From a phage: a stretch of DNA of 64,000 nt. The first letter of the stretch is position 1; every line of letters begins with the position of its first letter. Location: sequence record PZ445517.1. The stretch is one strand, 5' to 3'. The notes under the pieces were generated by a model, which saw only the letters and a program-made list of their open reading frames with translations, searched no databases and was not told where the DNA came from. Made by a program: the position numbers and the translations under genes. Shown here piece after piece: positions 892 through 59,969 of this stretch.

Positions 892-1052
892 TAACTATAC
901 CACTCAATTAGTTGACTTTATTATAATATCATCAGACACTTGATTTGTAAACTGGTCTGTGTTATTTTCTTCAAAAATTTTTTCTACGAATTCATTGAAC
1001 GACTCGCGTTCCTGAGCTACATTATGCTCGATTACCTTTTCAAGATTATGAC

Positions 1053-1331
1053 TCATTCAAAATAATCTTCAATTTCGTAATCATGGACATAAATCATTAT
1101 AGTTTTTAATACATCATCAATACTTTTTCCTGGAGCTGGAATTACGTAAAAATACCCCGCCTTTGAGTTATCTTTATAAGTTCCAACCAAGAAATCATTA
1201 TTTTCAAGATGTAGTTCTTCAACTAATTCATCGACAATTGAGTGGTATAAATTTGGTAGAAACTTATATAGCTTTTCTAGAATGTCAATTTTGATTGTAT
1301 ATTGAACCACAGATTGAGAATCAATAATCAT
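1053..1331 (-). CDS. arn: Arn-like anti-restriction protein (McrBC inhibitor), acidic 92 aa
   Basis: 92 aa acidic protein at the T4 arn position between asiA and motA; length matches T4 Arn; assignment by synteny and length only. Confidence 0.45.
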   Translation of the reverse strand: MIIDSQSVVQYTIKIDILEKLYKFLPNLYHSIVDELVEELHLENNDFLVGTYKDNSKAGYFYVIPAPGKSIDDVLKTIMIYVHDYEIEDYFE

Positions 1332-1414
1332 AGACCTTCCCCTTATGTTTCTGTTTACGATTAGATTCTTTAAACGCTTTCTTCTTATCTTTATGAACAG
1401 AAGCTTTATTAAAA

Positions 1415-1633
1415 TTATGTTTTGCGACTAAATTGTTCATAGTGCTGAATTACCTCTCTTAAACATTTGCATGTGAATGAAAACTTTTTAGCTACACCAC
1501 ACTCAAATATATGTTCTCTTAAATCACGTGTGTCAGTATATCCCATCTCAACGATAAAGTGCCGTATTAGATTTTTATCTTTATCGTTGAGAGAATTAAA
1601 ATAATCTGATTTTGAATTAATTTCCCTGGCCAA
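1415..1633 (-). CDS. hypothetical protein, 72 aa (arn-motA interval)
   Basis: ORF in minus-strand gene array; stop overlaps start of next ORF. Confidence 0.35.
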   Translation of the reverse strand: MAREINSKSDYFNSLNDKDKNLIRHFIVEMGYTDTRDLREHIFECGVAKKFSFTCKCLREVIQHYEQFSRKT

Positions 1634-1913
1634 ATTGAATCACCTTCAGTTGACGTTTTAGCTCTTTTATCATCTCTTCGTTCATCGCAATATAAAGATC
1701 ACGTAAAGCAGGTTTTAACATTCCATTTATTGGGGAACTAAATGGACATACATAATCTTTTCCTACGAGCTTTTTAGTTAATTCCATATCACAAAACTGA
1801 AATGCAGGTTCATTAGCATAAATTCCCCAATTAGTTGACATCATTTTATTGGCATATTCCAACGCCTGGATTTGATTAGTAATTCCGTCAATTTGAAACT
1901 TTTTAATATTCAT
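1617..1913 (-). CDS. hypothetical protein, 98 aa
   Basis: ORF in array; start overlaps stop of upstream ORF by 1 nt. Confidence 0.35.
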   Translation of the reverse strand: MNIKKFQIDGITNQIQALEYANKMMSTNWGIYANEPAFQFCDMELTKKLVGKDYVCPFSSPINGMLKPALRDLYIAMNEEMIKELKRQLKVIQFGQGN

Positions 1914-2374
1914 TAGTAAAGGTCCTCAGAGTAAAGTTCTTTTTCACTACCACCGCGTTCAATACGTACTTGTCCAGCGTAAGTTGCAATAATCATTGCT
2001 TCTTCACGTGTCCAATAATTACTGTATTGGTCAATAAACCCTTGATCATCATCACAAACTTGCTGAGTAACTAATTGAGGTTTAACTACATCTAAAACTG
2101 CTGCCATGTCTTTAGAATAATGACGAGCACCTGGAATAACAAGAGTTCGTCCATCTTTTAATTTAAAACGGTTGGCTGCGCAAACAATTCGTCGTTGATA
2201 CTTTTGGTTTTCGTCCCAATATGCAGACTGCCAACAGATTTCAGGAACTTCTTTCAGAATATCTTCTTCTGTGCATTTATAACCATGCGCTTTAAATTTT
2301 TCAACAAGACTTTCTGGAGTTTCACGAGATAAAGGAACATTCAGCATTTTTAAACGATTAATAAATGGGTTCAT
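1913..2374 (-). CDS. hypothetical protein, 153 aa
   Basis: ORF in array, 4-nt ATGA-type overlap with the upstream ORF. Confidence 0.4.
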
Positions 2375-2700
2375 TTAAACCATCCTTTAATACGTTGCCA
2401 CAAAGTTTTCTGTTGAGCTTTGTTAACACCAATTGAGCGAATAACTGGTTGAGATTCCTGGAATTCTTTATAATCAGCAAGGTAAATTTCGTAAGCTGAA
2501 TCTGTAAAGGAACTTATCGCTGCCATGAAATTATTGCGAATACCTACTGGAGCATCTTTACTTTCACGAATAATCATGTATTTACCAGTCTTAATCTTTA
2601 CGATAGTTCCAAGATAAGCTCCATGGTACCAGATGTCCCAACCCTCTTGAGTAGGTTCTGCGCAACGACGAAGTTCATTAACAATTTCTAACTTGTTCAT
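2371..2700 (-). CDS. hypothetical protein, 109 aa (motA.1 position)
   Basis: ORF immediately downstream of motA in the same orientation. Confidence 0.4.
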
Positions 2701-2710
2701 TATTTATTCC

Positions 2711-3346
2711 TCACAGTTCAGATGCTACAGTGATTACAGCTTCAATGTTTTCTGCCGAGCGTTTAATGTCAAGATACACATTACCGTTTTTAGCGATTTT
2801 ACATGACATTCCGATGTCAGTAAATTTCTGAATATGATGTTCCATCATTTTGTATCCAAAAATTCGCATATTTCCGTTGTTGTTAATTTCAAAATTACGA
2901 ATTCCGTGAGTGCGTTTTTCTAAAATAGCGAGATAGTTACTGCGATAAGTTTCAACCTTTTTAAGAACAAATCCATTTTCATCTAAAAGTTTTAACATGA
3001 GGTCTTTATCTTCTTCCATATCTGAAGTAATCTCGCGAGCTTTACGAGTTGCTCGTTTTTTCAGTAGTTCCGGAGCATTTTCCTGTGCATATAAAGTTGC
3101 TGCATTTGAAATAATATCCTGAGCTTCACCTGTAATGATTAATCCATCACCAGATTTCTCCACTAGGCCTTTTTTAATCAATACCCCAATATTACTATTA
3201 ACTACTGCGTTACCTAAATCTGGATGTACCTCACGAACTTCTGCAGCTGTAATGAAATCTTTCTTAGCAATGGTAATTAAAATCGCAGCAGTTTTTTCAT
3301 TCAGAACATCGTTAGAAGCTTTGATGATGTAAGTTACTTTAGACAT
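2711..3346 (-). CDS. motA: middle-transcription activator MotA
   Basis: 211 aa, MSKVTYIIKASNDVLNEKTAAILITIAKKDFITAAEVREVHPDLGN...; length and sequence match T4 MotA as recalled. Confidence 0.85.
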   Translation of the reverse strand: MSKVTYIIKASNDVLNEKTAAILITIAKKDFITAAEVREVHPDLGNAVVNSNIGVLIKKGLVEKSGDGLIITGEAQDIISNAATLYAQENAPELLKKRATRKAREITSDMEEDKDLMLKLLDENGFVLKKVETYRSNYLAILEKRTHGIRNFEINNNGNMRIFGYKMMEHHIQKFTDIGMSCKIAKNGNVYLDIKRSAENIEAVITVASEL

Positions 3347-3387
3347 TTTCTAATCTCCGTAATTCTGTATCAGTAGTTGATAGTTGT

Positions 3388-3417
3388 ATAGTACCACAGT
3401 ATGCTTTGGTTGTAAAC
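3388..3417 (-). promoter_or_regulatory. T4-type early (sigma-70) promoter upstream of motA
   Basis: minus strand reads GTTTAC (3412-3417 rc), 18 nt, TACTAT (3388-3393 rc); member of a repeated promoter cassette. Confidence 0.6.
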
Positions 3418-3447
3418 CTTTTTGTGAAAAAATTTTTGGAATAAAAA

Positions 3448-3468
3448 AGGGAGAGCCGAGGCTCTCCC
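3448..3468 (-). terminator. intrinsic terminator hairpin
   Basis: gggagagc-cgag-gctctccc stem-loop; on minus strand followed by TTTTTTATT. Confidence 0.55.
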
Positions 3469-3473
3469 TAAAA

Positions 3474-3623
3474 TTAATGCATGACTGTGATAACTGTCAT
3501 GATAACACGTTGAATGCCGAACGCAAGAAGACCTCCTGCTACAGCTGGAACAACACCTAAACCTGTCAGTAAAATGCTACCAGATACTAATGCCGCGCTT
3601 GTAATACCTATAAATGGACTCAT
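3474..3623 (-). CDS. small hydrophobic peptide, 49 aa
   Basis: hand-translated MSPFIGITSAALVSGSILLTGLGVVPAVAGGLLAFGIQRVIMTVITVMH; ATG overlaps the gene 52 stop (ATGA); below the ORF-track size cutoff. Confidence 0.35.
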   Translation of the reverse strand: MSPFIGITSAALVSGSILLTGLGVVPAVAGGLLAFGIQRVIMTVITVMH

Positions 3624-4948
3624 TTGATTTCCTCTAAATCTTTGGTGTATTCTGTAACTACATCAGTAGTTTTCCAATATTCGTTTTCTTCTTTCTTAGC
3701 TTTAGCTTCTTCAGCAAGTTTCTTTGCTTCATCGGAAGTCATATGAAAAATATTCATTCCGACTAGTTTATCAACATAAGAAGAATACATATCAATTTTA
3801 GAAAGTTCTTCGGTTAGTTCTTTGCGAGTTTTACCTTGCACAACAATTTCACCTGAAATTACTTTCTTAATGAAATGCGCCTTGGCAAAGGCTAAACGAA
3901 ATGCTGATTCAGTTTCTTTGATTTTGTTATCAATTCGTTTTTGGACATAAGTTTTACGAACTTCAACAAAGTCTTTAATTAAATCAACTACGTTATCGTA
4001 AACTTGCAGCTTTCCTTTCTCATTAATGACTGTAATATTCTGAGAACGACGCTCAATCAACCCGAAGTCTTTCATAATTTTTGCATGGCGTTCTTCTTCG
4101 TTATCACTCAAAGAATATTCTTTGCGGAATTTAATTTTAAAGCCAAAGCCATGCTCACCGCAAGCATCATCCCATGTAATGAAGCCTTTATCTTCAAGCG
4201 GATCTAAGATTTTACTCACGTAAGTTTCACGATCATACTTATACGGAATCTCAGTGATATTCATTTGAGTTCGTGAAGTAAACTTGTACGTTCCACGAAT
4301 TTCATATTGACCGTCAATTTCAACGACTTCACCACGAAATTCTGGGAATTCTACCTTCGGTTTAGTTACTTTCTTTCCTTGAAGAGCTTGTAGTACAGCT
4401 TTCTTGACAGAAGAAACACTATGAGGAAGAATGTAAGTTGCATAACCAGTTGCAATACCGGAAACACCATTAAGAAGAACAGTAGGAATAATAGGCAAAT
4501 AGAAAGCAGGAGGAATGTGTTCTTTATCTTGATGTACCGGAGCATATTCAGTATCTTTATATACGCTATAGAAATTTTTACTTACACGAGCAAAAATATA
4601 ACGACTTGCTGCTGCTTTTTGAACGGTACGAGAACCAAAGTTTCCTTGACCATCTAACAAAGGAAAGTTATTATTCCAAGTGTTAGCCATCAAAGCCCCC
4701 GCATCTTGTGCAGAGTTTTCGCCATGATGATATCCAAGGTCAGCTACACCACCTGCAATAGAAGCGAGTTTGTGAAACTTATCTTTATTTCCCCGTGCCA
4801 AATCAAGAGCTCGAGCGATAACAAATCGTTGAACTGGCTTAAATCCATCAATCATATTTGGAATAGCACGGTTTTCAACCGTGTACATAGCATAAGCCAA
4901 TGCTTCATTATCAATGATACTTTTTAAATCGCGATTATTCAGTTGCAT
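3620..4948 (-). CDS. 52: DNA topoisomerase II medium subunit (GyrA-like)
   Basis: 442 aa; ...AIPNMIDGFKPVQRFVIARAL... GyrA/ParC-type DNA breakage-reunion motifs; length equals T4 gp52. Confidence 0.9.
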   Translation of the reverse strand: MQLNNRDLKSIIDNEALAYAMYTVENRAIPNMIDGFKPVQRFVIARALDLARGNKDKFHKLASIAGGVADLGYHHGENSAQDAGALMANTWNNNFPLLDGQGNFGSRTVQKAAASRYIFARVSKNFYSVYKDTEYAPVHQDKEHIPPAFYLPIIPTVLLNGVSGIATGYATYILPHSVSSVKKAVLQALQGKKVTKPKVEFPEFRGEVVEIDGQYEIRGTYKFTSRTQMNITEIPYKYDRETYVSKILDPLEDKGFITWDDACGEHGFGFKIKFRKEYSLSDNEEERHAKIMKDFGLIERRSQNITVINEKGKLQVYDNVVDLIKDFVEVRKTYVQKRIDNKIKETESAFRLAFAKAHFIKKVISGEIVVQGKTRKELTEELSKIDMYSSYVDKLVGMNIFHMTSDEAKKLAEEAKAKKEENEYWKTTDVVTEYTKDLEEIK

Positions 4949-4952
4949 AAAT

Positions 4953-5093
4953 TTACCATACTAGTGAATGTAGTGCCATAATAACATCAGAAATGAAAAG
5001 CACGACTTGAATTAATCCGAACATTACTCCATAATATAGTGCTACCAATAAAGCAGCAAGGGCTAATGAATAGCCCAAGATTTTCTTAATCAT
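4953..5093 (-). CDS. small membrane peptide, 46 aa (52.1 position)
   Basis: hand-translated MIKKILGYSLALAALLVALYYGVMFGLIQVVLFISDVIMALHSLVW; ATG sits inside ATGATTAA overlapping the upstream stop. Confidence 0.4.
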   Translation of the reverse strand: MIKKILGYSLALAALLVALYYGVMFGLIQVVLFISDVIMALHSLVW

Positions 5094-5244
5094 TAGTAGA
5101 TAACAACACAAATGTTAAATATGCACACATACCCTGGGCTAAAGCTTGTGAAAACACACTGCTAGCATCAATACAAATAGTTAAAACACATGCTACTATC
5201 CAACAAATAAATGAAATAACTCCTAATAATTTTGCAATATTCAT
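5086..5244 (-). CDS. ac: small membrane protein, acridine-sensitivity (ac)-like, 52 aa
   Basis: hand-translated MNIAKLLGVISFICWIVACVLTICIDASSVFSQALAQGMCAYLTFVLLSTND; GAGGA 4 nt upstream; position and size match T4 ac. Confidence 0.45.
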   Translation of the reverse strand: MNIAKLLGVISFICWIVACVLTICIDASSVFSQALAQGMCAYLTFVLLSTND

Positions 5245-5251
5245 ATTTTCC

Positions 5252-5332
5252 TCACTGGCGTCCGAAGACGCCTTTAGTTTTAAGATTGTTACGATAGAAC
5301 TGCATCACGTGTTCGTTGTGGAAATTACTCAT
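5252..5332 (-). CDS. stp: Stp peptide (26 aa; activator of the host PrrC anticodon nuclease / EcoprrI antirestriction)
   Basis: hand-translated [26 protein letters not shown], matching T4 Stp as recalled; ATG overlaps the ndd stop (TAATG). Confidence 0.65.
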
Positions 5333-5787
5333 TAATACGCCTGCAACACAAATTTAAAGTTATCAGCCAACATACGGTTCATTTCTTCAAGTGTTTGATA
5401 CTCAGAATGATGATTACGAGTAAACGCTAAAGATAACTGACCTTTTCCAAATCCCGTCGTCAAAGGTTTCATCTTAGAAGCAGGTAGATAAAATACTGTG
5501 TATGCAACATTGTTATTCGCAATAGTACGCGCAAGCTGAGACCGACGCTGACGAATATGACTTAGAACTGCACTGAATCCTTGCTTAGAACGCTGATTAC
5601 CTACATAAAACCGCGCCGATACACACGGACTATCAAATGGACCACCAAATTTACTCACTAAAAAGTAAAATCCAGGGTTAGACAAAATGTCTTTATGCGG
5701 AGTTCCAAAAACCCATTCACCGCCCTTGATTGTACCAATAACAGTTGCGCCTGCATTATTCAAATCAGTAACAGTCATATATTTCAT
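5332..5787 (-). CDS. ndd: nucleoid disruption protein Ndd-like
   Basis: 151 aa, same length as T4 Ndd; syntenic (stp downstream, denB upstream). Confidence 0.55.
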
Positions 5788-5846
5788 GTTAATTTCCTCT
5801 AATTATTTTCTACTCCAAGGCCGCATGAATACATACGGCCGATAAA

Positions 5847-6062
5847 TTAATCGTCGCAGTCGACACTTAATTCCCAGAATTCTTCTACAGTATAAGTTTC
5901 AGTATCATTTTCAATACAGAAACGTTCATTACTGTTATTTGCTAAAGTAGCGTTAACTGTCATTTTCTCGCTAGTGCTTTTAAGAGGTGAAATACGAATT
6001 AACTGATCACCACTATCTAAGCAAAAAATTTCACCAACTTTTACATCTTTAAAGATTTTCAT
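5847..6062 (-). CDS. hypothetical protein, 71 aa
   Basis: ORF in ndd-denB interval. Confidence 0.4.
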   Translation of the reverse strand: MKIFKDVKVGEIFCLDSGDQLIRISPLKSTSEKMTVNATLANNSNERFCIENDTETYTVEEFWELSVDCDD

Positions 6063-6177
6063 AATTCACCTCAAGGAGTATAAAACCCAAACGCAGTTGT
6101 TGACCATCCCATCCAATATGGGAAATTTGCACCAATGTAAAATACAAGAATATAAAACCAAATGCTTAGTAAATTCA

Positions 6178-6396
6178 TTATTTTACACCATTCCAAATTG
6201 TTTCAACCACAGATTTTAAGCCATTTTGATGAATGTCCATTCCGACAACTGCCATCAAATAAATTCCAACCACAACTGAACCCAAGGCGAAAATCAGCAT
6301 GAAAATGAATAAAGCTGGAAAAATATTATCGAAAAACCATTCAATAAATGTAAAAGCACTACGTTTACGCTTCATATTTTCCTCACATAAATCCAA
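6178..6396 (-). CDS. hypothetical membrane protein, 72 aa
   Basis: hydrophobic core IFPALFIFMLIFALGSVVVGIYLMAVVG. Confidence 0.4.
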   Translation of the reverse strand: MDLCEENMKRKRSAFTFIEWFFDNIFPALFIFMLIFALGSVVVGIYLMAVVGMDIHQNGLKSVVETIWNGVK

Positions 6397-6496
6397 AGTA
6401 AGCGTTTAATACATCAATCATTAAAACGATTGGGAATATACTCAAAACTACTAGTATTATAACTACATTCCATATAGCTTTAACAATCTTTTTCAT
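6383..6496 (-). CDS. small membrane peptide, 37 aa
   Basis: MKKIVKAIWNVVIILVVLSIFPIVLMIDVLNAYFGFM with GGAGG upstream; the longer track ORF (to 6631) is read-through of the promoter cassette. Confidence 0.35.
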   Translation of the reverse strand: MKKIVKAIWNVVIILVVLSIFPIVLMIDVLNAYFGFM

Positions 6497-6524
6497 TTTC
6501 TGTTCCTCCGTAGTTGATAGTTGT

Positions 6525-6554
6525 ATAGTACCACAGAGGAACAGTCTTGTAAAC
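6525..6554 (-). promoter_or_regulatory. T4-type early promoter
   Basis: GTTTAC (6549-6554 rc), 18 nt, TACTAT (6525-6530 rc); conserved cassette. Confidence 0.6.
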
Positions 6555-6739
6555 AACTTTTTTAAAAATATTCGTAATAAATGTGAATACCAATCACTAC
6601 TGCCGAAACTTGCGCAACCCACCACGCACAAGCAATAAGTACAGAATTAAAAATTTTCATAATAACCTCATCACAAAAGTAAATGTTAAACAAATTAATG
6701 GAATACTAATTAACCAAACAAAACACCACCATAATGAAC

Positions 6740-7012
6740 TCATAGTTCAATCTCAGCGATTTTCATTTCATTACTATTAATAGCCGCTTTAAGACTATCT
6801 GAAAGAATTACATTCCAGTGGTCATTCATATGACCATTAACTAAGCGTGTAATTTCTTCGGGAGTTGAAAAATAAGGCGTATCAGACTCCCAATGCGATA
6901 GTCCCAAGCGAGTATAAATCATACCTTCATCGTCGCTAGAATATTCAACTGACACAAACTCATCAGTTATTTTATGTTTAGCGTAATAAAATTTAAATTT
7001 CATTTTACTCAA
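6740..7012 (-). CDS. hypothetical protein, 90 aa
   Basis: ORF in array. Confidence 0.4.
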   Translation of the reverse strand: MSKMKFKFYYAKHKITDEFVSVEYSSDDEGMIYTRLGLSHWESDTPYFSTPEEITRLVNGHMNDHWNVILSDSLKAAINSNEMKIAEIEL

Positions 7013-7215
7013 TAATCCGCTAAAAGATCGACGATTGCATCACGAAGACACTTATTCGCAATACGTTTAAGAGCAATTTCAGTTTCTGGAGCATTTTGAA
7101 TAATCATTGAATTCAATTCAGCCTCAGCAAACTGAAGTTCTTTAACTAATTCAGCTTTATATTTTCCTTGACCTTTCTTAGCTTTTGCTCGTTTTAATTC
7201 AGCTGTAGTAAACAT
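7009..7215 (-). CDS. hypothetical protein, 68 aa
   Basis: start placed at internal ATG 7213-7215 after GGAG; the track N-terminus is promoter read-through. Confidence 0.4.
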   Translation of the reverse strand: MFTTAELKRAKAKKGQGKYKAELVKELQFAEAELNSMIIQNAPETEIALKRIANKCLRDAIVDLLADY

Positions 7216-7249
7216 TTTTATTCTCCAATCCATATCAGTTGATAGTTGT

Positions 7250-7279
7250 ATAGTACCACGGTCCTTGTGATATGTAAAC
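7250..7279 (-). promoter_or_regulatory. T4-type early promoter
   Basis: GTTTAC (7274-7279 rc), 18 nt, TACTAT (7250-7255 rc). Confidence 0.6.
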
Positions 7280-7295
7280 TGTTTTGTGAAAATTT

Positions 7296-7853
7296 TTAAA
7301 TGGAAAGATACCATCCGTTGTAGTTGCTTTTTCTTACAACCTTACGAAGGTCTTCTCTATCACCGATGAACTTCGGAGTGTACTGGATGACACCTGGATG
7401 AATTTCTTTAGTGTTGAATATAATTATACAGTCAGCGACCTGATGATTCAGAATGGGCCCTAGATTTATTCCAGAACCGTATGGATACTCTCCGCTGCAT
7501 CCTGTTGTTACCGAAATCCAACGTGAGTCAGTTTGATGTGTCTTAACTTCTACACGAAGCCCGCAGTATTTTGGATGCGCCAGTACATCCCACGCATATG
7601 TATACGGGTCATTAACATCCTCTTGGCCTTTGTTAACATACCCGCTTAGCCAATCTGCTACAAAAAACTCTGCATACACAGCGATACGACATCTTTCAAT
7701 AACTTCTGCTTTATCCTGATTCGGATTTTGTTTTAAAGAGTATCTTGCTGTATCAGCAATTTTGACCTTCATTTCACTAGTCAAGTCACTGTTCAATAGG
7801 GTAAATGTCGGAATCTGAAATAGTCTCTGTAAACCCGGATTCGTTTTCTGCAT
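7296..7853 (-). CDS. denB: endonuclease IV (DenB)-like
   Basis: 185 aa, same length as T4 DenB; located just downstream of rIIB as in T4. Confidence 0.5.
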   Translation of the reverse strand: MQKTNPGLQRLFQIPTFTLLNSDLTSEMKVKIADTARYSLKQNPNQDKAEVIERCRIAVYAEFFVADWLSGYVNKGQEDVNDPYTYAWDVLAHPKYCGLRVEVKTHQTDSRWISVTTGCSGEYPYGSGINLGPILNHQVADCIIIFNTKEIHPGVIQYTPKFIGDREDLRKVVRKSNYNGWYLSI

Positions 7854-7918
7854 TAAACTTTCCTTTTACGTCGGAATCACTGATATTCATATAATAAATC
7901 ATAGTTTCCCTTAAAACA

Positions 7919-7936
7919 AAAGGGCCGAAGCCCTTT
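7919..7936 (-). terminator. intrinsic terminator hairpin (reads as a terminator on either strand)
   Basis: aaagggccgaagcccttt; minus strand GGGC-UUCG-GCCC then TTTTGTTTT; plus strand followed by TTTATTTTATTT. Confidence 0.55.
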
Positions 7937-7939
7937 ATT

Positions 7940-8134
7940 TTATTTGAATTGTGCAATTCTTTTCTCTAAACAATCTGCATAAGATTTCATTGAGATAAAC
8001 TGCGAAAGCAACAGTTCTTGCTCAACTGCATTAACCGCTGAAAACTTTTCACTTTCTAAAAATTTGCTCAGTGCATTAATTTTGAGCATTAATTGATCGT
8101 ATTCTTCTTTTACTCGTGCTTGATAACCTAACAT
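7940..8134 (-). CDS. hypothetical protein, 64 aa
   Basis: ORF between rIIB and denB. Confidence 0.4.
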   Translation of the reverse strand: MLGYQARVKEEYDQLMLKINALSKFLESEKFSAVNAVEQELLLSQFISMKSYADCLEKRIAQFK

Positions 8135-8162
8135 AATTTTCCTTAGTTAAGGGCCGAAGCCC

Positions 8163-9101
8163 TTATTTAAATTGTTCAGTAACGTCTTCAACTACTTCAT
8201 ATTGACAGGTACGCATTTTAGCATCGTTGTAATCAATCGGAATTGATACTACATCGCGAGGATGTACTTTAACTTTTACAACTCGGCTGGTTGAACTGCC
8301 AAAGTGACGAATATAAGATTTAGAACACACATGCAGACCACGAGAACAAGTTTGTGTATCATCGTCATTCACACGAGTGCGTGGCATTTTAACTACTTTA
8401 CCAGGACTGTTATCAAAGGTGTTTGAGTGACAGTCAAAGTAATTGCTGCGAACTACTTTCCAAGCATAGAAGTAACCGTCTTCTGTAATTTCAATATCGT
8501 TTGCTACCAAGAAATCAAAGAGTCGAGATACCGCTTTTTGGCTCGGGTTTTCCAGCAGATTTTCCAAGAACGGAAAATAAAATTCAAAGTTTTCGCCTTT
8601 TTCCATCGAATCGAGAATACGATCAACTAAACCAGATCGCAATTCAATGTTTTGATAGAACAAGCTTCCACCTTCAATTCGAACATCACCGGAAATATAT
8701 TTTTCAACAGCGCGACGAACGTTAATTTTTTGTGCCGCTTCTTCCAATTTATCTGCAACAAGCAGGTTAAGAATTTCCTGGAAGTTTGAATGAGTATTAG
8801 GAGTTGCGTTATAAGTTACGCCATCAACAGTAATTGAAATGAATTTTTTAGATGCATTCCAAATAATGTCAGATTTAGCAACTGGAGCAATAGCTACATC
8901 ACTCTTAACTTCAACTGTAATGTCACCGCTAATGGTAACTTTGGAGCGTTCAGCTTCTTCAGCATTTTTCAAAACACGACGGATTGTGTCAACCGATACA
9001 CCTTGCCAATCAGCCAATTCCTGTTGGGTGTAATTACCGCTTGAATACAGTTTGACAATTTCAGCTTGTTCGTTTTTGGTCAGGCATTTAATATTGTACA
9101 T
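8163..9101 (-). CDS. rIIB: rapid-lysis / lysis-inhibition protein rIIB
   Basis: 312 aa, same length as T4 rIIB; immediately downstream of rIIA. Confidence 0.8.
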   Translation of the reverse strand: MYNIKCLTKNEQAEIVKLYSSGNYTQQELADWQGVSVDTIRRVLKNAEEAERSKVTISGDITVEVKSDVAIAPVAKSDIIWNASKKFISITVDGVTYNATPNTHSNFQEILNLLVADKLEEAAQKINVRRAVEKYISGDVRIEGGSLFYQNIELRSGLVDRILDSMEKGENFEFYFPFLENLLENPSQKAVSRLFDFLVANDIEITEDGYFYAWKVVRSNYFDCHSNTFDNSPGKVVKMPRTRVNDDDTQTCSRGLHVCSKSYIRHFGSSTSRVVKVKVHPRDVVSIPIDYNDAKMRTCQYEVVEDVTEQFK

Positions 9102-23246: not shown

Positions 23247-23563
23247 CTAGAATCACAAGAACTTCCACATGAATCGCCCGTCCATACATGAACAGGAACA
23301 TTAGTGTCATATGAATCAGAACTAGACTGTGTATTCTGTGTGTTAGATGATGTAGTAGGTGTTGACCAGCGCCAAGGATTTTTATAATATTCCTGGGCTT
23401 CTTCATAAGTCATAGTAACTGCTTCTACTGTTCCATCTCCCATATAAACATATTCAACTACAGTTAAAGGAAGGTAGTCATTTGAAATAGGAACTACACC
23501 TTCTCCGGGAGTTGTAGAGAAAAAATCCGTAAAGAAATTTTTAAACCAATTAAAGATAAACAT
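23222..23563 (-). CDS. hypothetical protein, 113 aa, with Cys/Ser-rich C-terminal tail
   Basis: C-terminus ...[20 protein letters not shown]. Confidence 0.4.
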
Positions 23564-23769
23564 TACAAAAAGCCTCTCTTGAATTCAACTTGCTTCTCGC
23601 CATAATCATATCGAATCTCTGCATTAAATTCGACAGAACCATCTGCGTACATCATAAATGAATGCACAACAACTTCTGTAGACCATGGCTGTAGTTCATA
23701 TTTCTTCATTACATGTCGTGAAATGATAATATCTAAATCTTCATTTGGTTTAATCCAGCGATTTAACAT
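23563..23769 (-). CDS. hypothetical protein, 68 aa
   Basis: ORF directly downstream of an early promoter, AGGAG upstream. Confidence 0.4.
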   Translation of the reverse strand: MLNRWIKPNEDLDIIISRHVMKKYELQPWSTEVVVHSFMMYADGSVEFNAEIRYDYGEKQVEFKRGFL

Positions 23770-23795
23770 AGTGCTCTCCTCTATAAGATAATTCT

Positions 23796-23825
23796 ATTAT
23801 ACCATACTCATTTTGGAAAGTAAAC
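23796..23825 (-). promoter_or_regulatory. T4-type early promoter
   Basis: GTTTAC (23820-23825 rc), 18 nt, TGGTATAAT. Confidence 0.6.
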
Positions 23826-23840
23826 TGTTTAAATGAAAAA

Positions 23841-23860
23841 AGGACTCCCGAAGGAGTCCT
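23841..23860 (-). terminator. intrinsic terminator downstream of soc
   Basis: aggactcc-cgaa-ggagtcct; minus strand hairpin followed by TTTTTTCATTT. Confidence 0.65.
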
Positions 23861-23866
23861 TGAATT

Positions 23867-24112
23867 TTAACCGCCAGTTACTTTCCACAAATCTTCGTTT
23901 GCAGCAATCCATTCAGTACGTTGATTTTCTTCATATACAGTAGTATATGCTGCTTTTTCTGAAGGGAATGTCTGGTAATGAGCGCCAGAAATTTTGTGAA
24001 CGTCAGAATAAAGAGGGAAAGCTACAGAAATTTCCTTTCCTTCAATTTTCTTATTTCCATCTAATTTCTGCTCAAACGTTTTGATATTAACATAACCGCG
24101 AGTACTAGCCAT
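23867..24112 (-). CDS. soc: small outer capsid protein Soc
   Basis: 81-codon ORF, MASTRGYVNIKTFEQKLDGNKKIEGKEISVAFPLYSDVHKISGAHYQTFPSEK... matches T4 Soc as recalled. Confidence 0.9.
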   Translation of the reverse strand: MASTRGYVNIKTFEQKLDGNKKIEGKEISVAFPLYSDVHKISGAHYQTFPSEKAAYTTVYEENQRTEWIAANEDLWKVTGG

Positions 24113-24142
24113 GTAATTCTCCTTTTATTTAAATTACATGAT

Positions 24143-24150
24143 TATTTATA
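24143..24150 (-). promoter_or_regulatory. T4 late promoter (TATAAATA) for soc
   Basis: plus-strand tatttata is TATAAATA on the minus strand, about 30 nt upstream of the soc ATG. Confidence 0.55.
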
Positions 24151-24194
24151 ATAATTCTCGCGGCTTTTAAGTCGTCGTTTAAATAAACGCGCTA

Positions 24195-24713
24195 TTAATA
24201 ACCTCGGTCTTGACGAGCGAAGTTTTCAGCATTTTTCAGATAATAAAGTTTAAAGATTTCTTCAGCCGTAAGACCGAGACCTTGGAACATGTTCAGAACG
24301 AAATGAAGAATATCAATCATTTCAAATTTAATTTCCAACTGGTCTTGTGGAGACAAATCAGTAATTAGAGTTTCACGACGTTCACCATGTTGAGCTTTCC
24401 AAGGCTTCCATACAGCAGATGCATCTTTTTCGCCATTGCTCATACCGCCAAGAGAAGTCAGAAGTTCACGGAATTCATCGTCAATATAATCTTTCTGATT
24501 ACGCAGCCAATCAACAACTTCACCAGCAGTAGCCAAATCATCAGGATGACGGTTATATTCAGGTTTATCTTTAGCTAAACGAACTTGCAGAGATTTCTGC
24601 ATATCAAGCATAACTTGCAGTGGGTCTTTTTCATCACCGAGAATATCCCAGTATTCATTTTGAGCTTTATCGGCGCCTTCGATCAGTTGCGAACATTCAT
24701 TAAAGTATGCCAT
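24195..24713 (-). CDS. 56: dCTP pyrophosphatase (gp56, MazG-like)
   Basis: start placed at internal ATG (MAYFNECSQLIEG...) giving about 172 aa (T4 gp56 171 aa); track ORF extends further upstream. Confidence 0.75.
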   Translation of the reverse strand: MAYFNECSQLIEGADKAQNEYWDILGDEKDPLQVMLDMQKSLQVRLAKDKPEYNRHPDDLATAGEVVDWLRNQKDYIDDEFRELLTSLGGMSNGEKDASAVWKPWKAQHGERRETLITDLSPQDQLEIKFEMIDILHFVLNMFQGLGLTAEEIFKLYYLKNAENFARQDRGY

Positions 24714-24980
24714 TATTTTTCCTTTCAATTCATGGATTAGTAGATTAATTATACAATAAATATATAAAGCAATAAGGAGGACATATGGTACAAAAATTAA
24801 TGGCACTTGTTAATGCCATCAAAGGTAATAAAAACGTATAGCTTTTACTATTTCTGCTATGATAGGAATTTTACTTTGGAATTTTGTTTTATCGCCAGTT
24901 GCTATTGCTCATGGCGTTAGTATTCCAGTAATTACTCTTGATACATTCGTAGATTTAGCATTTGCTTTAGTTGGGTTAAT

Positions 24981-26009
24981 TTAAATCTTAGCATATTTAG
25001 ATAACCGCATTTTAGCCATCAACCCCTGGGCAATATTATTTTTCATATATTCCATAATTTGTTCAGGGGTTGCACCTTCCTTTCTAATCATATCATTAAC
25101 ATCTTTTGATTTCCAGGGAGATTTATCCCAAAACATAACCCTTTCTCCTGCATCAACTAATTTAGTCATTCGTTTGATAGTGTCAGGGTGACGAGGTTCA
25201 TTATCTAAAACCCACACTCGTCTATCTTTAAATGGAACAACTTCTAGGTCTAATTGACCACCTGTAATAGCTATACCATTTTCAATAAAAAGTGAATCGA
25301 TGGGTCCTTCTAGAACATATACATCACCATCTTTAACTCGTTCAACACCGTAAATTTTTGTTGCTTCAGGATAAGCTTTGATGGTGATATATTTTTGGGG
25401 AGCATCTTTCTTTAATGCACGTCCTTGAAAAGACTCAGCTTTTCCATTAGCATTATAAATTGGAATAACAAGACGAGGCTCAGGTATTTCTTTTTTATAT
25501 GTTCCTGGTGCTATACTATTAACTAATTTAGGCCATTCAGTTGTAAACCAAAGATATTTCCATTTATCCTTTGGAATACAACGAGCTTTTACGTATTTTA
25601 TAATTGGATGGTCTTCCGCCAGTTTATCTAATCTAATGCATGACGGAAGAGATTTAATTATTTTCTTCTCGGATTGTTTAGGAAGTTCTTTAGGTTTTTC
25701 TACTGGACGACTTTTACCTTTTTCTTTTCTTATTTCAAAGATATACTCACGATATAAATCAGGTTCAAACTCCTTTAAATATATTCCGATTGGTGCATGA
25801 TAGTTACAGTTATAACAATGAATATTTCCTTCATTATTATCACCGTAATACCATCCACGGGCTTTATTTTGGTCGGTTTTTGAATCTCCACAAACAGGAC
25901 ATCTAAACCGTAATTTAAAAGTTGAACTATTATTTACTTGTGTGAATTTAGGTAAATGAGCTAATGCACGGTATGCAAACTCATTATCAATCCAAGGTAT
26001 TGATGACAT
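24981..26009 (-). CDS. 61: DNA primase gp61
   Basis: 342 aa, same length as T4 gp61; N-terminal zinc ribbon CPVCGDS...CYNC plus TOPRIM-like region. Confidence 0.9.
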   Translation of the reverse strand: MSSIPWIDNEFAYRALAHLPKFTQVNNSSTFKLRFRCPVCGDSKTDQNKARGWYYGDNNEGNIHCYNCNYHAPIGIYLKEFEPDLYREYIFEIRKEKGKSRPVEKPKELPKQSEKKIIKSLPSCIRLDKLAEDHPIIKYVKARCIPKDKWKYLWFTTEWPKLVNSIAPGTYKKEIPEPRLVIPIYNANGKAESFQGRALKKDAPQKYITIKAYPEATKIYGVERVKDGDVYVLEGPIDSLFIENGIAITGGQLDLEVVPFKDRRVWVLDNEPRHPDTIKRMTKLVDAGERVMFWDKSPWKSKDVNDMIRKEGATPEQIMEYMKNNIAQGLMAKMRLSKYAKI

Positions 26010-29103: not shown

Positions 29104-29460
29104 TTAAAAGAATTTAAATTTTTTCTTTGACCTTTTATTAAATGCATCTTGTAGTTGCATTGTAATACATTTTTCTACATGAGGAGCTAACTCAGCTTTT
29201 CTTTCTTGGTCAAGAACAGCAAAGTCCATTACGACTTTTCCATCAACCCAATCTAATTTTGTCACATACACAATGTGTGTAGAACCATCTTCTAGTTTAA
29301 TGACAATCTCCTGGATAACATTTTCCATGGCAGATTTAATTATCTTAAGGGATTCATTAAAAAGACGTTCTTTTCTTTCTTCTTCCCCCTCCGAAGAGGG
29401 GGATTCGTCGATAATTTCTAAATCTAAATCATCTTTATTCATTAAATTCTTCCATATCAC
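29104..29460 (-). CDS. 40: gp40-like head assembly protein
   Basis: 118 aa ORF between gene 41 and uvsX; synteny and length. Confidence 0.45.
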   Translation of the reverse strand: MIWKNLMNKDDLDLEIIDESPSSEGEEERKERLFNESLKIIKSAMENVIQEIVIKLEDGSTHIVYVTKLDWVDGKVVMDFAVLDQERKAELAPHVEKCITMQLQDAFNKRSKKKFKFF

Positions 29461-30616
29461 TTAACTGATCTAGGTCAGTTTCTAAATCAGCTGCTGATTT
29501 ACTTTTACTTTCTGGAGATTTAAATTTTTCAACCTTTGAGTTAATCAATTCATCAACTTCAGCTTCAACAATTTCATTGCTATCAATAGCACCTAACTGA
29601 TAAGCACGTTTAATAGCATCTCGGAATGGTTGATGCTTAAATAAAGGACCCCAGAATGTAGTGCAGTTGGTATCTTTTGCACGCCAAGATTTTTCTTCGC
29701 GAATCATCTCACCGGTTTCTTCATCAAGAAATTCACGGGCATACCAGCCATTTTTAGGTTTTACCACGAATCCTAATTCTAGAGCCATATCTAACAATCC
29801 AGAATAAGGATCGATACCACCGTCAAATTTAACATCAATAAAGAATTTACTTTTTTCTTTAACGGTACGAGATTTTTCTACATTTAGAACAAATTGATAC
29901 CCCTGAAGATCAGAACCATCTTTAATCTGGCGTTTACCGATAATGAATACGGTATCAGCCGAATACATTACGCCTGTACCACCTGTCATCACGGTTTTAC
30001 TAAACATTTCAATTGTTTCAATTGTATGGTTAACCGCAACACATGGAATATTTTTAATGCTAAAATAAGGAGTAACAATACGGAATAATGACTTCAGTGA
30101 TTTAGCACGAGTCATATCTGCCACAGATTTTTCATTCAAGGCATCTTCCGTTTCTTTCTTAGAAGCCATATTACCGATTGAGTCGATGAATACAATAACC
30201 TTTTCACCACGCTCAATAGCTTCAAGCTGATTCACCATGTCAATTTTCAGTTGTTCAACTGACTGGATTGGTGTATGAATTACTCGTTCCGGGTCAACTC
30301 CCATGGATCGCAAATAAGCTGGAGTAATACCAAATTCGCTATCATAGAATAGACAAACCGCGTCAGGATATTTGTTCAAATATGCCGCAACCATAGTCAA
30401 AGACATATTTGATTTAAAGTGTTTAGAAGGCCCTGCGAAAATAGTTAAACCAGACTGCATACCGCCATCAATCGCACCAGAAATAGCAATATTAAGCATT
30501 GGAATTTTTGTACGAATTACATCCTTTTCATTAAAGAATTTAGATGTAGTCAGTTCAGCAGTCATTTTAGAAGTGGAAGCTTTAATCAAACGGGATTTTA
30601 AATCTGCAATAGACAT
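29435..30616 (-). CDS. uvsX: UvsX recombinase (RecA/Rad51 family)
   Basis: 393 aa; MSIADLKSRLIKASTSKMTAELTTSKFFNEKDVIRTKIPMLNIAISGAIDGGMQSGLTIFAGPSKHFKS... RecA-like Walker A. Confidence 0.9.
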   Translation of the reverse strand: MSIADLKSRLIKASTSKMTAELTTSKFFNEKDVIRTKIPMLNIAISGAIDGGMQSGLTIFAGPSKHFKSNMSLTMVAAYLNKYPDAVCLFYDSEFGITPAYLRSMGVDPERVIHTPIQSVEQLKIDMVNQLEAIERGEKVIVFIDSIGNMASKKETEDALNEKSVADMTRAKSLKSLFRIVTPYFSIKNIPCVAVNHTIETIEMFSKTVMTGGTGVMYSADTVFIIGKRQIKDGSDLQGYQFVLNVEKSRTVKEKSKFFIDVKFDGGIDPYSGLLDMALELGFVVKPKNGWYAREFLDEETGEMIREEKSWRAKDTNCTTFWGPLFKHQPFRDAIKRAYQLGAIDSNEIVEAEVDELINSKVEKFKSPESKSKSAADLETDLDQLSDMEEFNE

Positions 30617-30693
30617 TCATTTTTTCCATAGGCATCATTATATTTTCCTCACTGGTTAAAGATAGAGTAATTATAACACAATAAATTTAGGCA

Positions 30694-31542
30694 TTAATCA
30701 ACTGCTATCGGATGAATAGCATTAAACTTATGAAATGCTTCTGATTTTTCTTTACGCGAAACACACATGCGAAGAACCTTTAATGGCTCGTCTTCTTCAC
30801 CCAACGATTTTCGTTTTTCAATATTCGATGTTTTCCAACGAGCTTGCTCTGGAAACTCTCTATTGATTTGCTCAAGCGCTCTATTATGTTTAGAATTACT
30901 ACGAATTGAACTGCACCCGCCAGGAGCTTGTGCTTTTCCAGATACAACCAGATATTTGAACAAGGCCAAATGCGGATAACCTTGATTAATTAAATTGAGA
31001 AATGCATACATATCTTCGCATAAATCAATTTTTCCATACCCAATTTGTTCTGTCGTAAGTTTTCCGAGGTCATACCATGTATTCGTGAATCCATATGAAT
31101 TTTCACGATAATTACCCCAAGATGAAGTAATTTTAAAAATTGGTAAACGAGCATGGCCATGATAATATCCGCAATCCATGGCATCCTCGACATATTGAAT
31201 CAATTCATAGAACTGTTCACGAGTTAATTGATTGACTTTATCTACACAACGACGATCATCTCTTTTTCGCATTGAACTCATACGAATAGTAGTATCATCG
31301 TCAATCATCCAAATTCGTTGACCTGCATACATATCAGTAATTGCTTTACGAGTTCCAGCAATTCCATTTACATCATCAGGAATAGTTATAATTTTAGCTC
31401 TAGACCCATAGGCATCATAATAAGCTTTTTCTTCGTGTTCACGTACTACAATATGTGGTTCATAATCAGTCGGAAACATATCAAGGGCAGAAACTGCCCC
31501 TACACGTTGATAGCTTGGAATTACGAATTGAATCATTTCCAC
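30694..31542 (-). CDS. putative glycosyltransferase with DxD motif, in the slot where T4 carries beta-gt
   Basis: 282 aa; ...RIWMIDDDTTIR...; shorter than T4 beta-gt (351 aa) and no obvious two-Rossmann-domain pattern. Confidence 0.5.
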   Translation of the reverse strand: MEMIQFVIPSYQRVGAVSALDMFPTDYEPHIVVREHEEKAYYDAYGSRAKIITIPDDVNGIAGTRKAITDMYAGQRIWMIDDDTTIRMSSMRKRDDRRCVDKVNQLTREQFYELIQYVEDAMDCGYYHGHARLPIFKITSSWGNYRENSYGFTNTWYDLGKLTTEQIGYGKIDLCEDMYAFLNLINQGYPHLALFKYLVVSGKAQAPGGCSSIRSNSKHNRALEQINREFPEQARWKTSNIEKRKSLGEEDEPLKVLRMCVSRKEKSEAFHKFNAIHPIAVD

Positions 31543-32273
31543 TCACCGTTATAATCTTTTTTCACAATATGAGTTTCGCCAGTATTCCACCAATGATCAA
31601 CCAAGTAAAAATGACGAGAATATACATGAAGACTTCCAACATTCCATATAATAGAACCTGCTTTATACTGACGAGTTGAATCGCCTGCATTCAAATCAGA
31701 TACTAATTTATCTAATACGTATTTTTGCCATGCATAATCATTACGGAATCCGAAGACCACGTCATTTGAGCGCATGCTTACTACTGCATTGACTTTCTTA
31801 TCACGAATCAGGTACTGTACTGTATTAGTACACATGAAATCTGACATACCATCTTTATTGTAGTCAAATTGCATGGATGGACGAGTATAAATCATGATAC
31901 CACGTCGAGAATCAGGATTTTGACCAAGTTCAGCTAAACACATATCATACTGGGCATAGTTATCTTCTGACCAAATAGCCCAACCATAATTCGAGTTAAT
32001 TTCACCTTTAGAAGATGCTACCTGCTGCCAAATTTTCGGTGTTTCACCTGGAATATCTTTAACAAACAAGCTTTTAGATTTATACCATTCAAGTTCACGC
32101 TGAATGTATTCATCATTAAGAGCGCCAAAAATAAACGGTTCATCTGCTACAAATGATGCGCCAATAATTTCAATAGTTTTAACGCCAGTTTTATCAACTA
32201 CGAAATCTTTTTCTTTTAATGCAGTTCCCAAATAAAAACGGATTTCTTCAACTGTCATAGAGTCATTAATCAT
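31533..32273 (-). CDS. 42: dCMP hydroxymethylase gp42
   Basis: 246 aa, same length as T4 gp42; thymidylate-synthase-like. Confidence 0.85.
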   Translation of the reverse strand: MINDSMTVEEIRFYLGTALKEKDFVVDKTGVKTIEIIGASFVADEPFIFGALNDEYIQRELEWYKSKSLFVKDIPGETPKIWQQVASSKGEINSNYGWAIWSEDNYAQYDMCLAELGQNPDSRRGIMIYTRPSMQFDYNKDGMSDFMCTNTVQYLIRDKKVNAVVSMRSNDVVFGFRNDYAWQKYVLDKLVSDLNAGDSTRQYKAGSIIWNVGSLHVYSRHFYLVDHWWNTGETHIVKKDYNGEWK

Positions 32274-32426
32274 TTAAACCTCAATTGATACATTCATATT
32301 TAACTTGTAACAGTAATAAACCCCAACCTAAAATAATAGTTGGAATCATAAGAGGAACCGTTACACTATAGTATATACTTATTATAATCATCAAGATTAA
32401 AAGCAACACTGCTATAATTTTGCTTT

Positions 32427-32678
32427 TCATTCCTTCTCTCTGATGATAATTACTTGATTTGGCTGTGCAGACTTTTTGGTTTCACCCGCAATTGACCAAA
32501 TAAATGTAATAAACCAACCAATGATTGACCAGTTAAACAGTAAAGATGTAAAAAAGATTCCTACTGTCGATTTTGACCCACGCATCAAGGCGATGAACCA
32601 TGGGAGCATGTATATAATAATAGCCAACACACCTGAAACTAAAACCATAAAAATTGAACCTGCTACTAAAGTTTCCAT
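32427..32678 (-). CDS. imm: immunity (superinfection exclusion) membrane protein Imm
   Basis: 83 aa, two hydrophobic segments; same length as T4 Imm. Confidence 0.7.
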   Translation of the reverse strand: METLVAGSIFMVLVSGVLAIIIYMLPWFIALMRGSKSTVGIFFTSLLFNWSIIGWFITFIWSIAGETKKSAQPNQVIIIREKE

Positions 32679-39353: not shown

Positions 39354-40070
39354 ATGAATTATAAACTAATTTATGAAAAGTTAATCTCTAATGCTAAATC
39401 TCGAAAACTTGATTGTTATACTGAATCTCATCACATTATACCACGCTGTTTAAATGGCAGCGATGATGCTTCAAACTTAGTAGATTTAACACCAGAAGAG
39501 CACTATGTAGCTCATCAACTTTTAGTAAAAATTTATCCTTCTGAACCAAAATTAGTCTATGCTGCTAACATGATGACAGTTTCTACGAAATACGCTAAAC
39601 GCAACAATAAAACTTTCGGTTGGATTCGTCGTAAACTCTGGGAAATAGAAAAGAATAAAGAATTCTCCCAGGAGACACGAAAGAAAATGTCTGATGCAGT
39701 AGCTAATAAAGCAAGACTAACTTGTCCTCATTGCGGTAAGTCTGGATTAAGCGGGAATATGAATCGTTGGCATTTTGATAACTGCCCAAATCACCCTAAT
39801 CCTAAAGTTAGACCACCAATGTCTAAAGAACACAGAAATAATATCTCAAACGGGCTTAAAGCAATCGTTCTTGAAGAAACATCCTGCGAATTCTGCGGAA
39901 TGATAGGCAAGAAATGCGTTATCGCAGCGCATAGAAATTTCTGCAAGAAAAATCCAAATGGACGCAAGAAAACTGAAAAGACTGGTACTTGCGTCCATTG
40001 TGGTAAAGTTACCACTTTCGGAAATTTATCAAGATGGCATAATGATAACTGTAAATATAAACTTAGCTAA
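39354..40070 (+). mobile_element. free-standing HNH homing endonuclease (Mob-like) with three CCHC zinc-finger-like repeats
   Basis: 238 aa on the opposite strand to all neighbours; HNH motif ...ESHHIIPRCLNGSDDASNLVDLTPEEHYVAH...; three CxxC-x11-H-x3-C modules; 3' end overlaps the gene 46 stop convergently. Confidence 0.8.
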
Positions 40071-43390: not shown

Positions 43391-44593
43391 TTATTTTGTA
43401 ATAATGTCAAACTGTTCTTTAAAGCAGAAGCTTGAATCTTGATGCTGATACAAAAATTCATATGCTTTTTCTCGCTCACGGTCATAAAGAGCTCGGTCAG
43501 ATGACAGTTCTTTAATACGTTCAAATGTTGATTCCATATCATTTTCATCAAACCAAATGATACCGCTATCATGCGAGGTCAAAGGAGTATTATCAACACG
43601 GAATTTTAAATTTTCGCCAGTAGATTTCCAAAATACCGGAATTGTTCCACATGCACCAAGCTCGAGATGAGTATATTCTAAAGAACGTTGTAGATATTTT
43701 TTGTCCAACTTACTCAGCTGATAACCAAATCCGGATTTACTCATGCGTTCAAGCATTTCGCTATTTACATAACGGTCAAGAATTTGCGTTGGCAAATTAG
43801 GAGCAATTTTAATTTGGTCTACTTGATGAAGACGATAATACTCGTATGGAATTCCTTTTTCTTTAATAGGAATGAACGCTGGAGAACGTTCCAGACCTTC
43901 CATAATAGTACTTAGTCCTGCAGGTTTAAGATGTTTTTCGTGAAAATCAAACATCTGATAAAAACCTTTCCATGTAGTCGTACGACCAATCCAACGGTTG
44001 ATATTCATGTTAATTTCAGAAACATCTTTCCAGTAGGTTGACCGAACCTTCGCAATATCCATAGGAGGCTGAAAGTTATATACTGTCGGTGCTTCTTCAA
44101 TATCATCAAACAGAGAAACTGTTTCTGGATACCATTCTTTCATCAGAACTTTATTAAAATCGCCATTATCAGAATGACTAAAAATAACATCAGCTCGACG
44201 AACAGTTTCTTCTAATCCCAAATTTCGGCGCAAAGAAAGAGAAGAATGGTCATGTTGATAAACTACAACACGAACAGAAGGTTTAATGTTATCAATAATT
44301 TTTTTATAGTTATTAATAGTGTCTTCTTCAACCGAAGTAGCAGGAACTGAATTGATAATTAGAATATCACAATCATTTACCAGCTTAAGTGTTTTATCAT
44401 ATTCTTTTGCCAATAAAACCGGAATTGAAAATGATTTATAATCATGCGCGCAATTACGAGTAAATGATTTATCTTTAGCATAAACCAAAGTTACTTCATG
44501 ACCATTTTTAATAAACCAATCACGTTGCTCAAGAGAAAATTTAGTTACACCACAACCTTCAAGACCTCGAGCCATAAAAATACATACTTTCAT
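43391..44593 (-). CDS. a-gt: DNA alpha-glucosyltransferase
   Basis: 400 aa, same length as T4 alpha-gt; N-terminus M-x-x-CIFMARGLEGCGVTKFSLEQRDWFIKNGHEV. Confidence 0.85.
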   Translation of the reverse strand: MKVCIFMARGLEGCGVTKFSLEQRDWFIKNGHEVTLVYAKDKSFTRNCAHDYKSFSIPVLLAKEYDKTLKLVNDCDILIINSVPATSVEEDTINNYKKIIDNIKPSVRVVVYQHDHSSLSLRRNLGLEETVRRADVIFSHSDNGDFNKVLMKEWYPETVSLFDDIEEAPTVYNFQPPMDIAKVRSTYWKDVSEINMNINRWIGRTTTWKGFYQMFDFHEKHLKPAGLSTIMEGLERSPAFIPIKEKGIPYEYYRLHQVDQIKIAPNLPTQILDRYVNSEMLERMSKSGFGYQLSKLDKKYLQRSLEYTHLELGACGTIPVFWKSTGENLKFRVDNTPLTSHDSGIIWFDENDMESTFERIKELSSDRALYDREREKAYEFLYQHQDSSFCFKEQFDIITK

Positions 44594-59066: not shown

Positions 59067-59594
59067 TTATGCGAGTACCGTCTTTAACCGTTCTTCAAAC
59101 TTCCGAAGAGTATTCTGGCGTTCAGCTCTTTGCTTTTTGTAAGTTTCAATACGCTCTGAAATGAGAGTGTATCGTTCATTTACTGATTCTTTCATAAAAT
59201 CAGGAATTTCACGAGAAGATTTAATCTCGTCAAATTTATCAATAACAGCTTGCTCTTCAGCAATTAAGTTATCATACATCAAAATATCTTTCTTGATGAA
59301 CTCAATATCTTCTTGAGTTACACGAGATAATTTAGATGCTTTATCCTTTTTGTACTGTTCATTAGTATCACGAGACCAGTGTAATGTACGATTTTTATTC
59401 GTATTTTTGTAAATTTCTACAATACCGATCTCATCAATAATAACGATCCAATTCCAACGAGATTTGTAAATTTGTCCTCCATCAACCGTGATTTCACCTC
59501 CGATTGAGATGTCATTAAAGAACTTGCTTTGTGCTTCAGATTTAAATTTACCATCATTGTAGTTTACCAAGTTGAAAATATCTTTAGCATTCAT
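59067..59594 (-). CDS. hypothetical protein, 175 aa
   Basis: start at ATG 59592-59594 with GGAGG upstream; track N-terminus is promoter read-through. Confidence 0.4.
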   Translation of the reverse strand: MNAKDIFNLVNYNDGKFKSEAQSKFFNDISIGGEITVDGGQIYKSRWNWIVIIDEIGIVEIYKNTNKNRTLHWSRDTNEQYKKDKASKLSRVTQEDIEFIKKDILMYDNLIAEEQAVIDKFDEIKSSREIPDFMKESVNERYTLISERIETYKKQRAERQNTLRKFEERLKTVLA

Positions 59595-59622
59595 TTTCTG
59601 TTCCTCCGTAGTTGATAGTTGT

Positions 59623-59652
59623 ATAGTACCACAGAGGAACGGTCTTGTAAAC
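59623..59652 (-). promoter_or_regulatory. T4-type early promoter
   Basis: GTTTAC (59647-59652 rc), 18 nt, TACTAT; conserved cassette. Confidence 0.6.
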
Positions 59653-59654
59653 AA

Positions 59655-59969
59655 CTAAAAGAAACTTCTTTCACAATTTTTTCCACTGAACCACGCGCTC
59701 ACTGCTTTCTTAGTCTCAGGAGCAGTGTTATCCATAAACCATTCAAAGGCAGCCTTTTTATGATTCTGGAGAGCTTCTCGGGCTTTAATCTGCTCACGGT
59801 CTATTAACACTAACATATGAGCCTTTCTTGTCACCAAGGGCTTCTTATGATTCTTGGAGTATTCCCAGTCATTTGTCCAACGCATTGTCGTTGCGAACTG
59901 AAATACTGCTTCTTTAATTTTAATTTCGTAAATTTCACGAGCCTTTGAGTATAACATCATTACCTCCAT
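59655..59969 (-). CDS. hypothetical protein, 104 aa
   Basis: ORF. Confidence 0.4.
   Translation of the reverse strand: MEVMMLYSKAREIYEIKIKEAVFQFATTMRWTNDWEYSKNHKKPLVTRKAHMLVLIDREQIKAREALQNHKKAAFEWFMDNTAPETKKAVSAWFSGKNCERSFF

Follow-up and report, generated by a model that had tools for sequence, protein, structure and literature searches.

The gene between gene 42 and uvsX on the minus strand of the window (the whole 64,000-nucleotide stretch of phage DNA that was analysed) most probably encodes a T2/T6-type beta-glucosyl-HMC-alpha-glucosyltransferase (ba-gt, or TAGT; EC 2.4.1.28), with a DNA modification pattern predicted to be like that of T6 and of phage vB_Eco_Solly (Solly); we put the probability of this reading at about 0.96. 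The coding sequence (30694..31536, minus strand, 280 aa, with its TAA stop codon at 30696-30694) is supported by the list of open reading frames, by profile matches and by its counterparts in T2 and Solly. The protein matches PHROG 842, 'beta-glucosyl-HMC-alpha-glucosyltransferase', with an E-value of 2.2e-89 over profile positions 3-269 of 270, and the Pfam family PF20691, 'TET-associated glycosyltransferase' (TAGT), with 38.9 bits over profile positions 2-205 of 205, the gathering score being 27.5; an NCBIfam scan of the protein matched no family. Homology to the T2 and T6 enzymes spans all 280 residues. Identity to the T2 protein extends to 278 of the 280 residues (R11H and P251S), and three substitutions (Y40N, D55G and R106H), joined in one T6 record by an amber codon, separate it from the T6 protein, in line with the suggestion of the first-pass annotation that this might be a second-sugar transferase of the T2/T6 kind. 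Both ba-gt and the alpha-glucosyltransferase (alpha-gt) of the window are 100% identical to their Solly counterparts (SOLLY_044 and SOLLY_064), the ba-gt genes themselves sharing 98.0% DNA identity. Megablast found the gene in at least 475 phage records (DNA identity of 90% or more across no less than 80% of the query), many of them annotated as beta-glucosyl-HMC-alpha-glucosyltransferase; with the PHROG match, this places the ORF well outside chance. The genetic context is likewise that of T2 and T6, since the gene occupies the slot between gene 42 and uvsX and the DNA also encodes an alpha-gt and a dCMP hydroxymethylase. The present analysis itself establishes the orthology, the class of fold, the conserved motif, the gene context and the lack of beta-gt; for the chemistry and the DNA pattern we rely on published studies of proteins that are identical to this one or nearly so. 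The gene is already known, in an already sequenced phage, and its genetics, chemistry and structural class have been published.

The mechanical list of open reading frames gives a minus-strand ORF of 282 aa from a GTG codon (30694..31542), in which the stretch M-I-D-D-D-T-T forms residues 79-85. The ORF, its IDDDTT motif and its flanks had been correctly described in the first-pass annotation; the length had not. An ATG codon at 31536, two codons inside this ORF, overlaps the stop codon of gene 42 as ATGA and has GGTGA ahead of it. It is the annotated start of ba-gt in Escherichia phage T4_ev240, T2, Solly and Geo (843 nt each); the gene of T6 AP018814 is tabulated at 840 nt, and a length of 280 aa is listed for T2 ba-gt by Thomas et al. 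The protein is put at 280 aa, from ATG 31536, because annotated orthologues use this start and Thomas et al. give the same length. Judging from the orthologue annotations and the ATGA overlap, the two extra codons, GTG GAA (31537..31542, minus strand), are probably not translated. Gene 42 (31533..32273, minus strand), annotated in the identical record LR597657.1 as the dCMP hydroxymethylase that is the source of the glucosylated hydroxymethylcytosine (hmC), lies in an aligned block with 95.6% identity to T4 DNA, and the ATGA overlap would fit translational coupling of gene 42 and ba-gt. The downstream flank is the uvsX recombinase gene (29435..30616, minus strand), assigned from the ORF list and from synteny with T2, T6 and T4; the order gene 42, ba-gt, uvsX is common to the window, T2, T6, Solly and Geo. 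When 30400-32500 was scanned for promoters and terminators, the counts deviated by no more than about 1.4 sd from those expected of shuffled sequence, and the lone 'terminator-like' hairpin falls within coding sequence. This G+C-rich hairpin, GGGGCAG-TTT-CTGCCCT (31482-31502, minus strand), is located in ba-gt codons 12-19, just upstream of the internal Met20 codon; the window shares it unchanged with T2, G29 and the two T6 records, and it may be due to chance. Between gene 42 and imm there is also a very hydrophobic ORF of 49 aa (MKSKIIAVLLLILMII...; 32281-32430, minus strand), which shares bases with the stop codon of imm. The records of T4_ev240, Solly and Geo call it 'Phage protein'; T4, T2 and T6 retain the protein sequence with 88-96% conservation, in a region left as unannotated intergenic DNA.

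The only annotated orthologue examined that does not use the equivalent of ATG 31536 is that of T6 MH550421. Codon 10 of ggt, as the gene is called there, is TAG (amber), as opposed to CAG in T6 AP018814, and because of this amber codon the protein is annotated with 261 aa from Met20, so that the first GT-A strand is missing. It reflects either a nonsense mutation peculiar to this stock or an error in sequencing. Since this laboratory record carries it, loss of ba-gt is apparently tolerated in culture, and one might suppose that the ORF of the window, too, is a decaying or non-expressed remnant. We regard this as barely conceivable: the ORF is intact, of full length and joined to gene 42 by the ATGA overlap, its product is identical to that of a phage with measured gentiobiosylation, Solly, and the gene is preserved in the large set of closely similar records mentioned above.

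The structure model of ba-gt matches only folds of the GT-A (GT2-like) class, its structural neighbours including BcsA (9fmv), TarP (6h1j) and AvpGT (9jma), with 6-16% identity in the structural alignments. A search of PDB chain sequences with ba-gt yielded chance matches alone (E > 1), and thus no sequence-detectable relative with a solved structure. Conservation was assessed in an alignment of nine family sequences reaching down to 32% identity, in which the N-terminal I-P-S-Y-x-R strand, Arg11, D79-D80-D81, D175 and Y177 are invariant. The protein combines a GT-A fold, as modelled, with a conserved DxD motif, in agreement with its earlier description as a DxD glycosyltransferase-like protein. 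The motif (codons D79-D80-D81, 31294..31302, minus strand) is placed by the model at the end of the strand formed by residues 74-79 and, by analogy with GT-A enzymology, is a putative binding site for the metal and the diphosphate of the UDP-sugar. D175 (codon 31012..31014, minus strand) belongs to the invariant C-E-D-x-Y stretch and is a candidate catalytic base; we take this stretch to resemble the ED/TED base motif of inverting GT2 enzymes. GT2 enzymes are inverting, and a beta linkage made from UDP-alpha-glucose fits such a mechanism. By its GT2-like structural neighbours and its DxD motif, ba-gt is probably an inverting, metal-dependent enzyme. Cellular GT2-family GT-A enzymes match ba-gt in predicted fold, in the N-terminal IPSY strand and in the DxD motif, but their acceptor is a lipid, a polysaccharide or a teichoic acid, whereas that of ba-gt is a sugar on DNA. 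A published AlphaFold3 model of the T6 enzyme (ba-gt/TAGT) likewise shows a GT-A fold, sister to GT2.

The enzyme found at this position in T4 is of another kind. T4 beta-gt (PF09198, PDB 1JG7; 351 aa, encoded by a 1056-nt CDS) shares with ba-gt its genomic slot, UDP-glucose as donor, the beta linkage and hmC-containing phage DNA as target; however, it has a GT-B fold and acts on bare hmC, whereas ba-gt has a predicted GT-A fold and acts on alpha-glucosyl-hmC. BLASTP detected no similarity between the two proteins (best E-value 2.2, over eight residues), a Pfam scan of ba-gt at E of 1 or below gave no PF09198 match, and the two-Rossmann-domain arrangement of GT-B is absent from the ba-gt model. 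Identity as a T4-type beta-glucosyltransferase was rejected on these grounds, namely the lack of sequence similarity and of PF09198 and a GT-A instead of a GT-B fold, which bears out the earlier view, based on length and motif, that the slot does not hold the 351-aa T4 enzyme. Nor is beta-gt encoded elsewhere: tblastn with T4 beta-gt found no homologue in the window (best E-value 1.4) or in the complete 166,954-bp T4_ev240 record (best E-value 3.6), and segA, which shares the slot with beta-gt in T4, had no tblastn homologue in the window or in the complete T4_ev240 genome. In blastn alignments, DNA homology between the window and T4 stops at 30604 and restarts at 31551, with flanks that are only 92-96% identical to T4. 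From these breaks it follows that a 946-bp cassette (30605..31550) without DNA similarity to T4 stands in place of 1941 bp of T4 (23556-25496) comprising segA and beta-gt.

According to published chemistry, ba-gt attaches a beta-1,6-linked glucose to alpha-glucosyl-hmC, which yields gentiobiosyl-hmC. In the phage of the window, hmC derived from gp42 would first be alpha-glucosylated in the DNA, after replication, by alpha-gt (43391..44593, minus strand; 400 aa), the presence of which had been noted in the first-pass annotation and is confirmed by its match to Pfam PF11440 (E-value 1.8e-237). In a second step, ba-gt would transfer glucose from UDP-glucose to the alpha-glucose, through a beta-1,6 bond, producing gentiobiosyl-hmC; hmC residues skipped by alpha-gt would remain unglucosylated, because T4_ev240 has no beta-gt. 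HPLC/MS of Solly virion DNA revealed about one-third 5-hmdC and about two-thirds alpha-5-gentiobiosyl-mdC; alpha-glucosyl-mdC was present as a low background, and the beta-glucosyl form was absent (PMC13390438). Since Solly has exactly these two transferases, the best prediction for the virion DNA is a pattern as in T6 and Solly, with about one-third hmC, about two-thirds alpha-gentiobiosyl-hmC, little mono-alpha-glucosyl-hmC and no beta-glucosyl-hmC. Solly is a different isolate, and the sequence comparison with it covered the two transferases. The earlier prediction of a glycosylation pattern unlike that of T4 would therefore hold, in the form of gentiobiosyl-hmC and hmC without beta-glucosyl-hmC.

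The authors of the Solly study also pointed out that the position of TAGT is syntenic with that of T4 beta-GT (PMC13390438). Such a shared slot might hint that ba-gt is a non-homologous replacement of beta-gt, that is, a first-sugar transferase acting on hmC left bare by alpha-gt. Indeed, homologues of ba-gt have also been found together with beta-GT, or alone, with neither first-sugar GT (PMC13216743), so that the acceptor range of the TAGT family is incompletely defined. Yet about one-third of the hmC of Solly, with identical ba-gt and alpha-gt, is unglucosylated and none is beta-glucosylated, and T6 deprived of ba-gt, reported to contain alpha-glucosyl-hmC only, loses just the second sugar (PMC11078745). 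Classical biochemistry of T2 and T6, as cited in later papers, gives the same pattern. We consider it very improbable that ba-gt transfers the first sugar, and retain its assignment as the transferase of the second.

How much of the second glucose is added may differ among carriers of the gene, as gentiobiosyl-hmC has been reported at 5% in T2 and 72% in T6. T2 ba-gt (UniProt Q06717 according to Thomas et al. 2018; T2_042 in LC348380) has 280 aa and occupies the same slot with the same ATGA overlap, but has His11 and Ser251 where the protein of the window has Arg11 and Pro251. T6 ba-gt is an orthologue in the same slot (AP018814 / NC_054907; ggt of MH550421), but T6 alpha-gt is of the T4 type, unlike that of the window, which, compared residue by residue, belongs to the T2 type, with two differences from T2, 33 from T6 (33-34 across T6 and T4) and complete identity to Solly. 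This T2-type alpha-gt, together with the mere 5% gentiobiosyl-hmC of T2 despite a near-identical ba-gt, would be consistent with a ba-gt that is present but of minor effect, the DNA being mainly mono-alpha-glucosylated with some 5% gentiobiosyl-hmC as in T2. We nevertheless find this unlikely, for Solly reaches about two-thirds gentiobiosyl-hmC with the same T2-type alpha-gt and an identical ba-gt, and the window has the family-invariant Arg11 where all T2 records have His11. The type of alpha-gt was also considered as a predictor of the ratio of mono- to diglucosylation and was rejected, because Solly (T2 type) and T6 (T4 type) are both highly gentiobiosylated and Geo (T6 type) is intermediate. 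Geo, whose alpha-gt is of the T6 type and whose ba-gt shows seven substitutions, has hmC, glucosyl-hmC and gentiobiosyl-hmC in a ratio of 1:2:2 (PMC13390438).

At codon 11 (located in T2 LC348380 at the site equal to 31504-31506 of the window), each of the eight records with an exact match to the T2 segment (seven of T2, and SV76) reads CAT, for His11; the window, G29, T6, Solly and Geo read CGT, for Arg11. This codon is the sole difference between the T2 records and their nearest non-T2 relative in the 121-nt test segment. T2 and Solly differ by four residues over ba-gt and alpha-gt together and yet are reported to contain 5% as against about 67% gentiobiosyl-hmC, for which reason a hypomorphic T2 allele (R11H or P251S) is proposed. 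Residue 11, and possibly residue 251, might then set the amount of second glucose and explain the contrast of T2 (5%) with T6 (72%); we put this forward as a tentative possibility, on balance rather doubtful. If it were true, the phage of the window would belong to the high-gentiobiosyl class.

The first-pass annotation had presented the gene as standing instead of a T4-type beta-gt. The substitution is real with respect to T4, but it is no departure from the usual, the arrangement being common in Tequatrovirus. Thomas et al. found a-gt with ba-gt in 12 of 14 T4-like "RB" phages, and a 2026 NAR survey reported alpha-GT or beta-GT combined with TAGT in the vast majority of phages, as compared with only six of 753 genomes with alpha-GT and beta-GT together (PMC13216743). 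Given the rarity of the latter pair, it is T4 that is the exception, and the phage of the window represents the common Tequatrovirus state. The predicted pattern is relevant to how sensitive the phage is to defences that depend on glucose, as had been anticipated for restriction systems. Loss of ba-gt makes T6 more susceptible to the Brig1 glycosylase (PMC11078745), which according to published work attacks alpha-glucosyl-hmC but did not degrade T6 DNA, with its mainly gentiobiosyl-hmC. GmrSD-type enzymes target DNA with alpha-glucosyl-hmC as well as DNA with gentiobiosyl-hmC. The pattern also matters when restriction enzymes or CRISPR tools are selected for phages of this kind, although the practical value is small and no new biological question is opened.

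The window is 100% identical to T4_ev240 (LR597657.1), in circular permutation: positions 8665-64000 correspond to 1-55336 of the record, and positions 1-8664 to 158291-166954. T4_ev240 is not T4 in the respects considered here, lacking segA and beta-gt and having a T2-type alpha-gt, and its name could mislead as to DNA modification. A CDS annotated as 'Phage-associated homing endonuclease' (39354-40070, plus strand; 30690-31406 of the record) lies between a 45.2-like gene and gene 46 and, as a plus-strand CDS amid minus-strand replication genes, looks like a mobile insertion. Two repeats were also observed. A 67-bp sequence occurs at 6492-6558 and, with 98.5% identity, about 53 kb away at 59590-59656, and a 73-bp stretch at 3379-3451 recurs with 95.9% identity at 145183-145255 of the record, outside the window.
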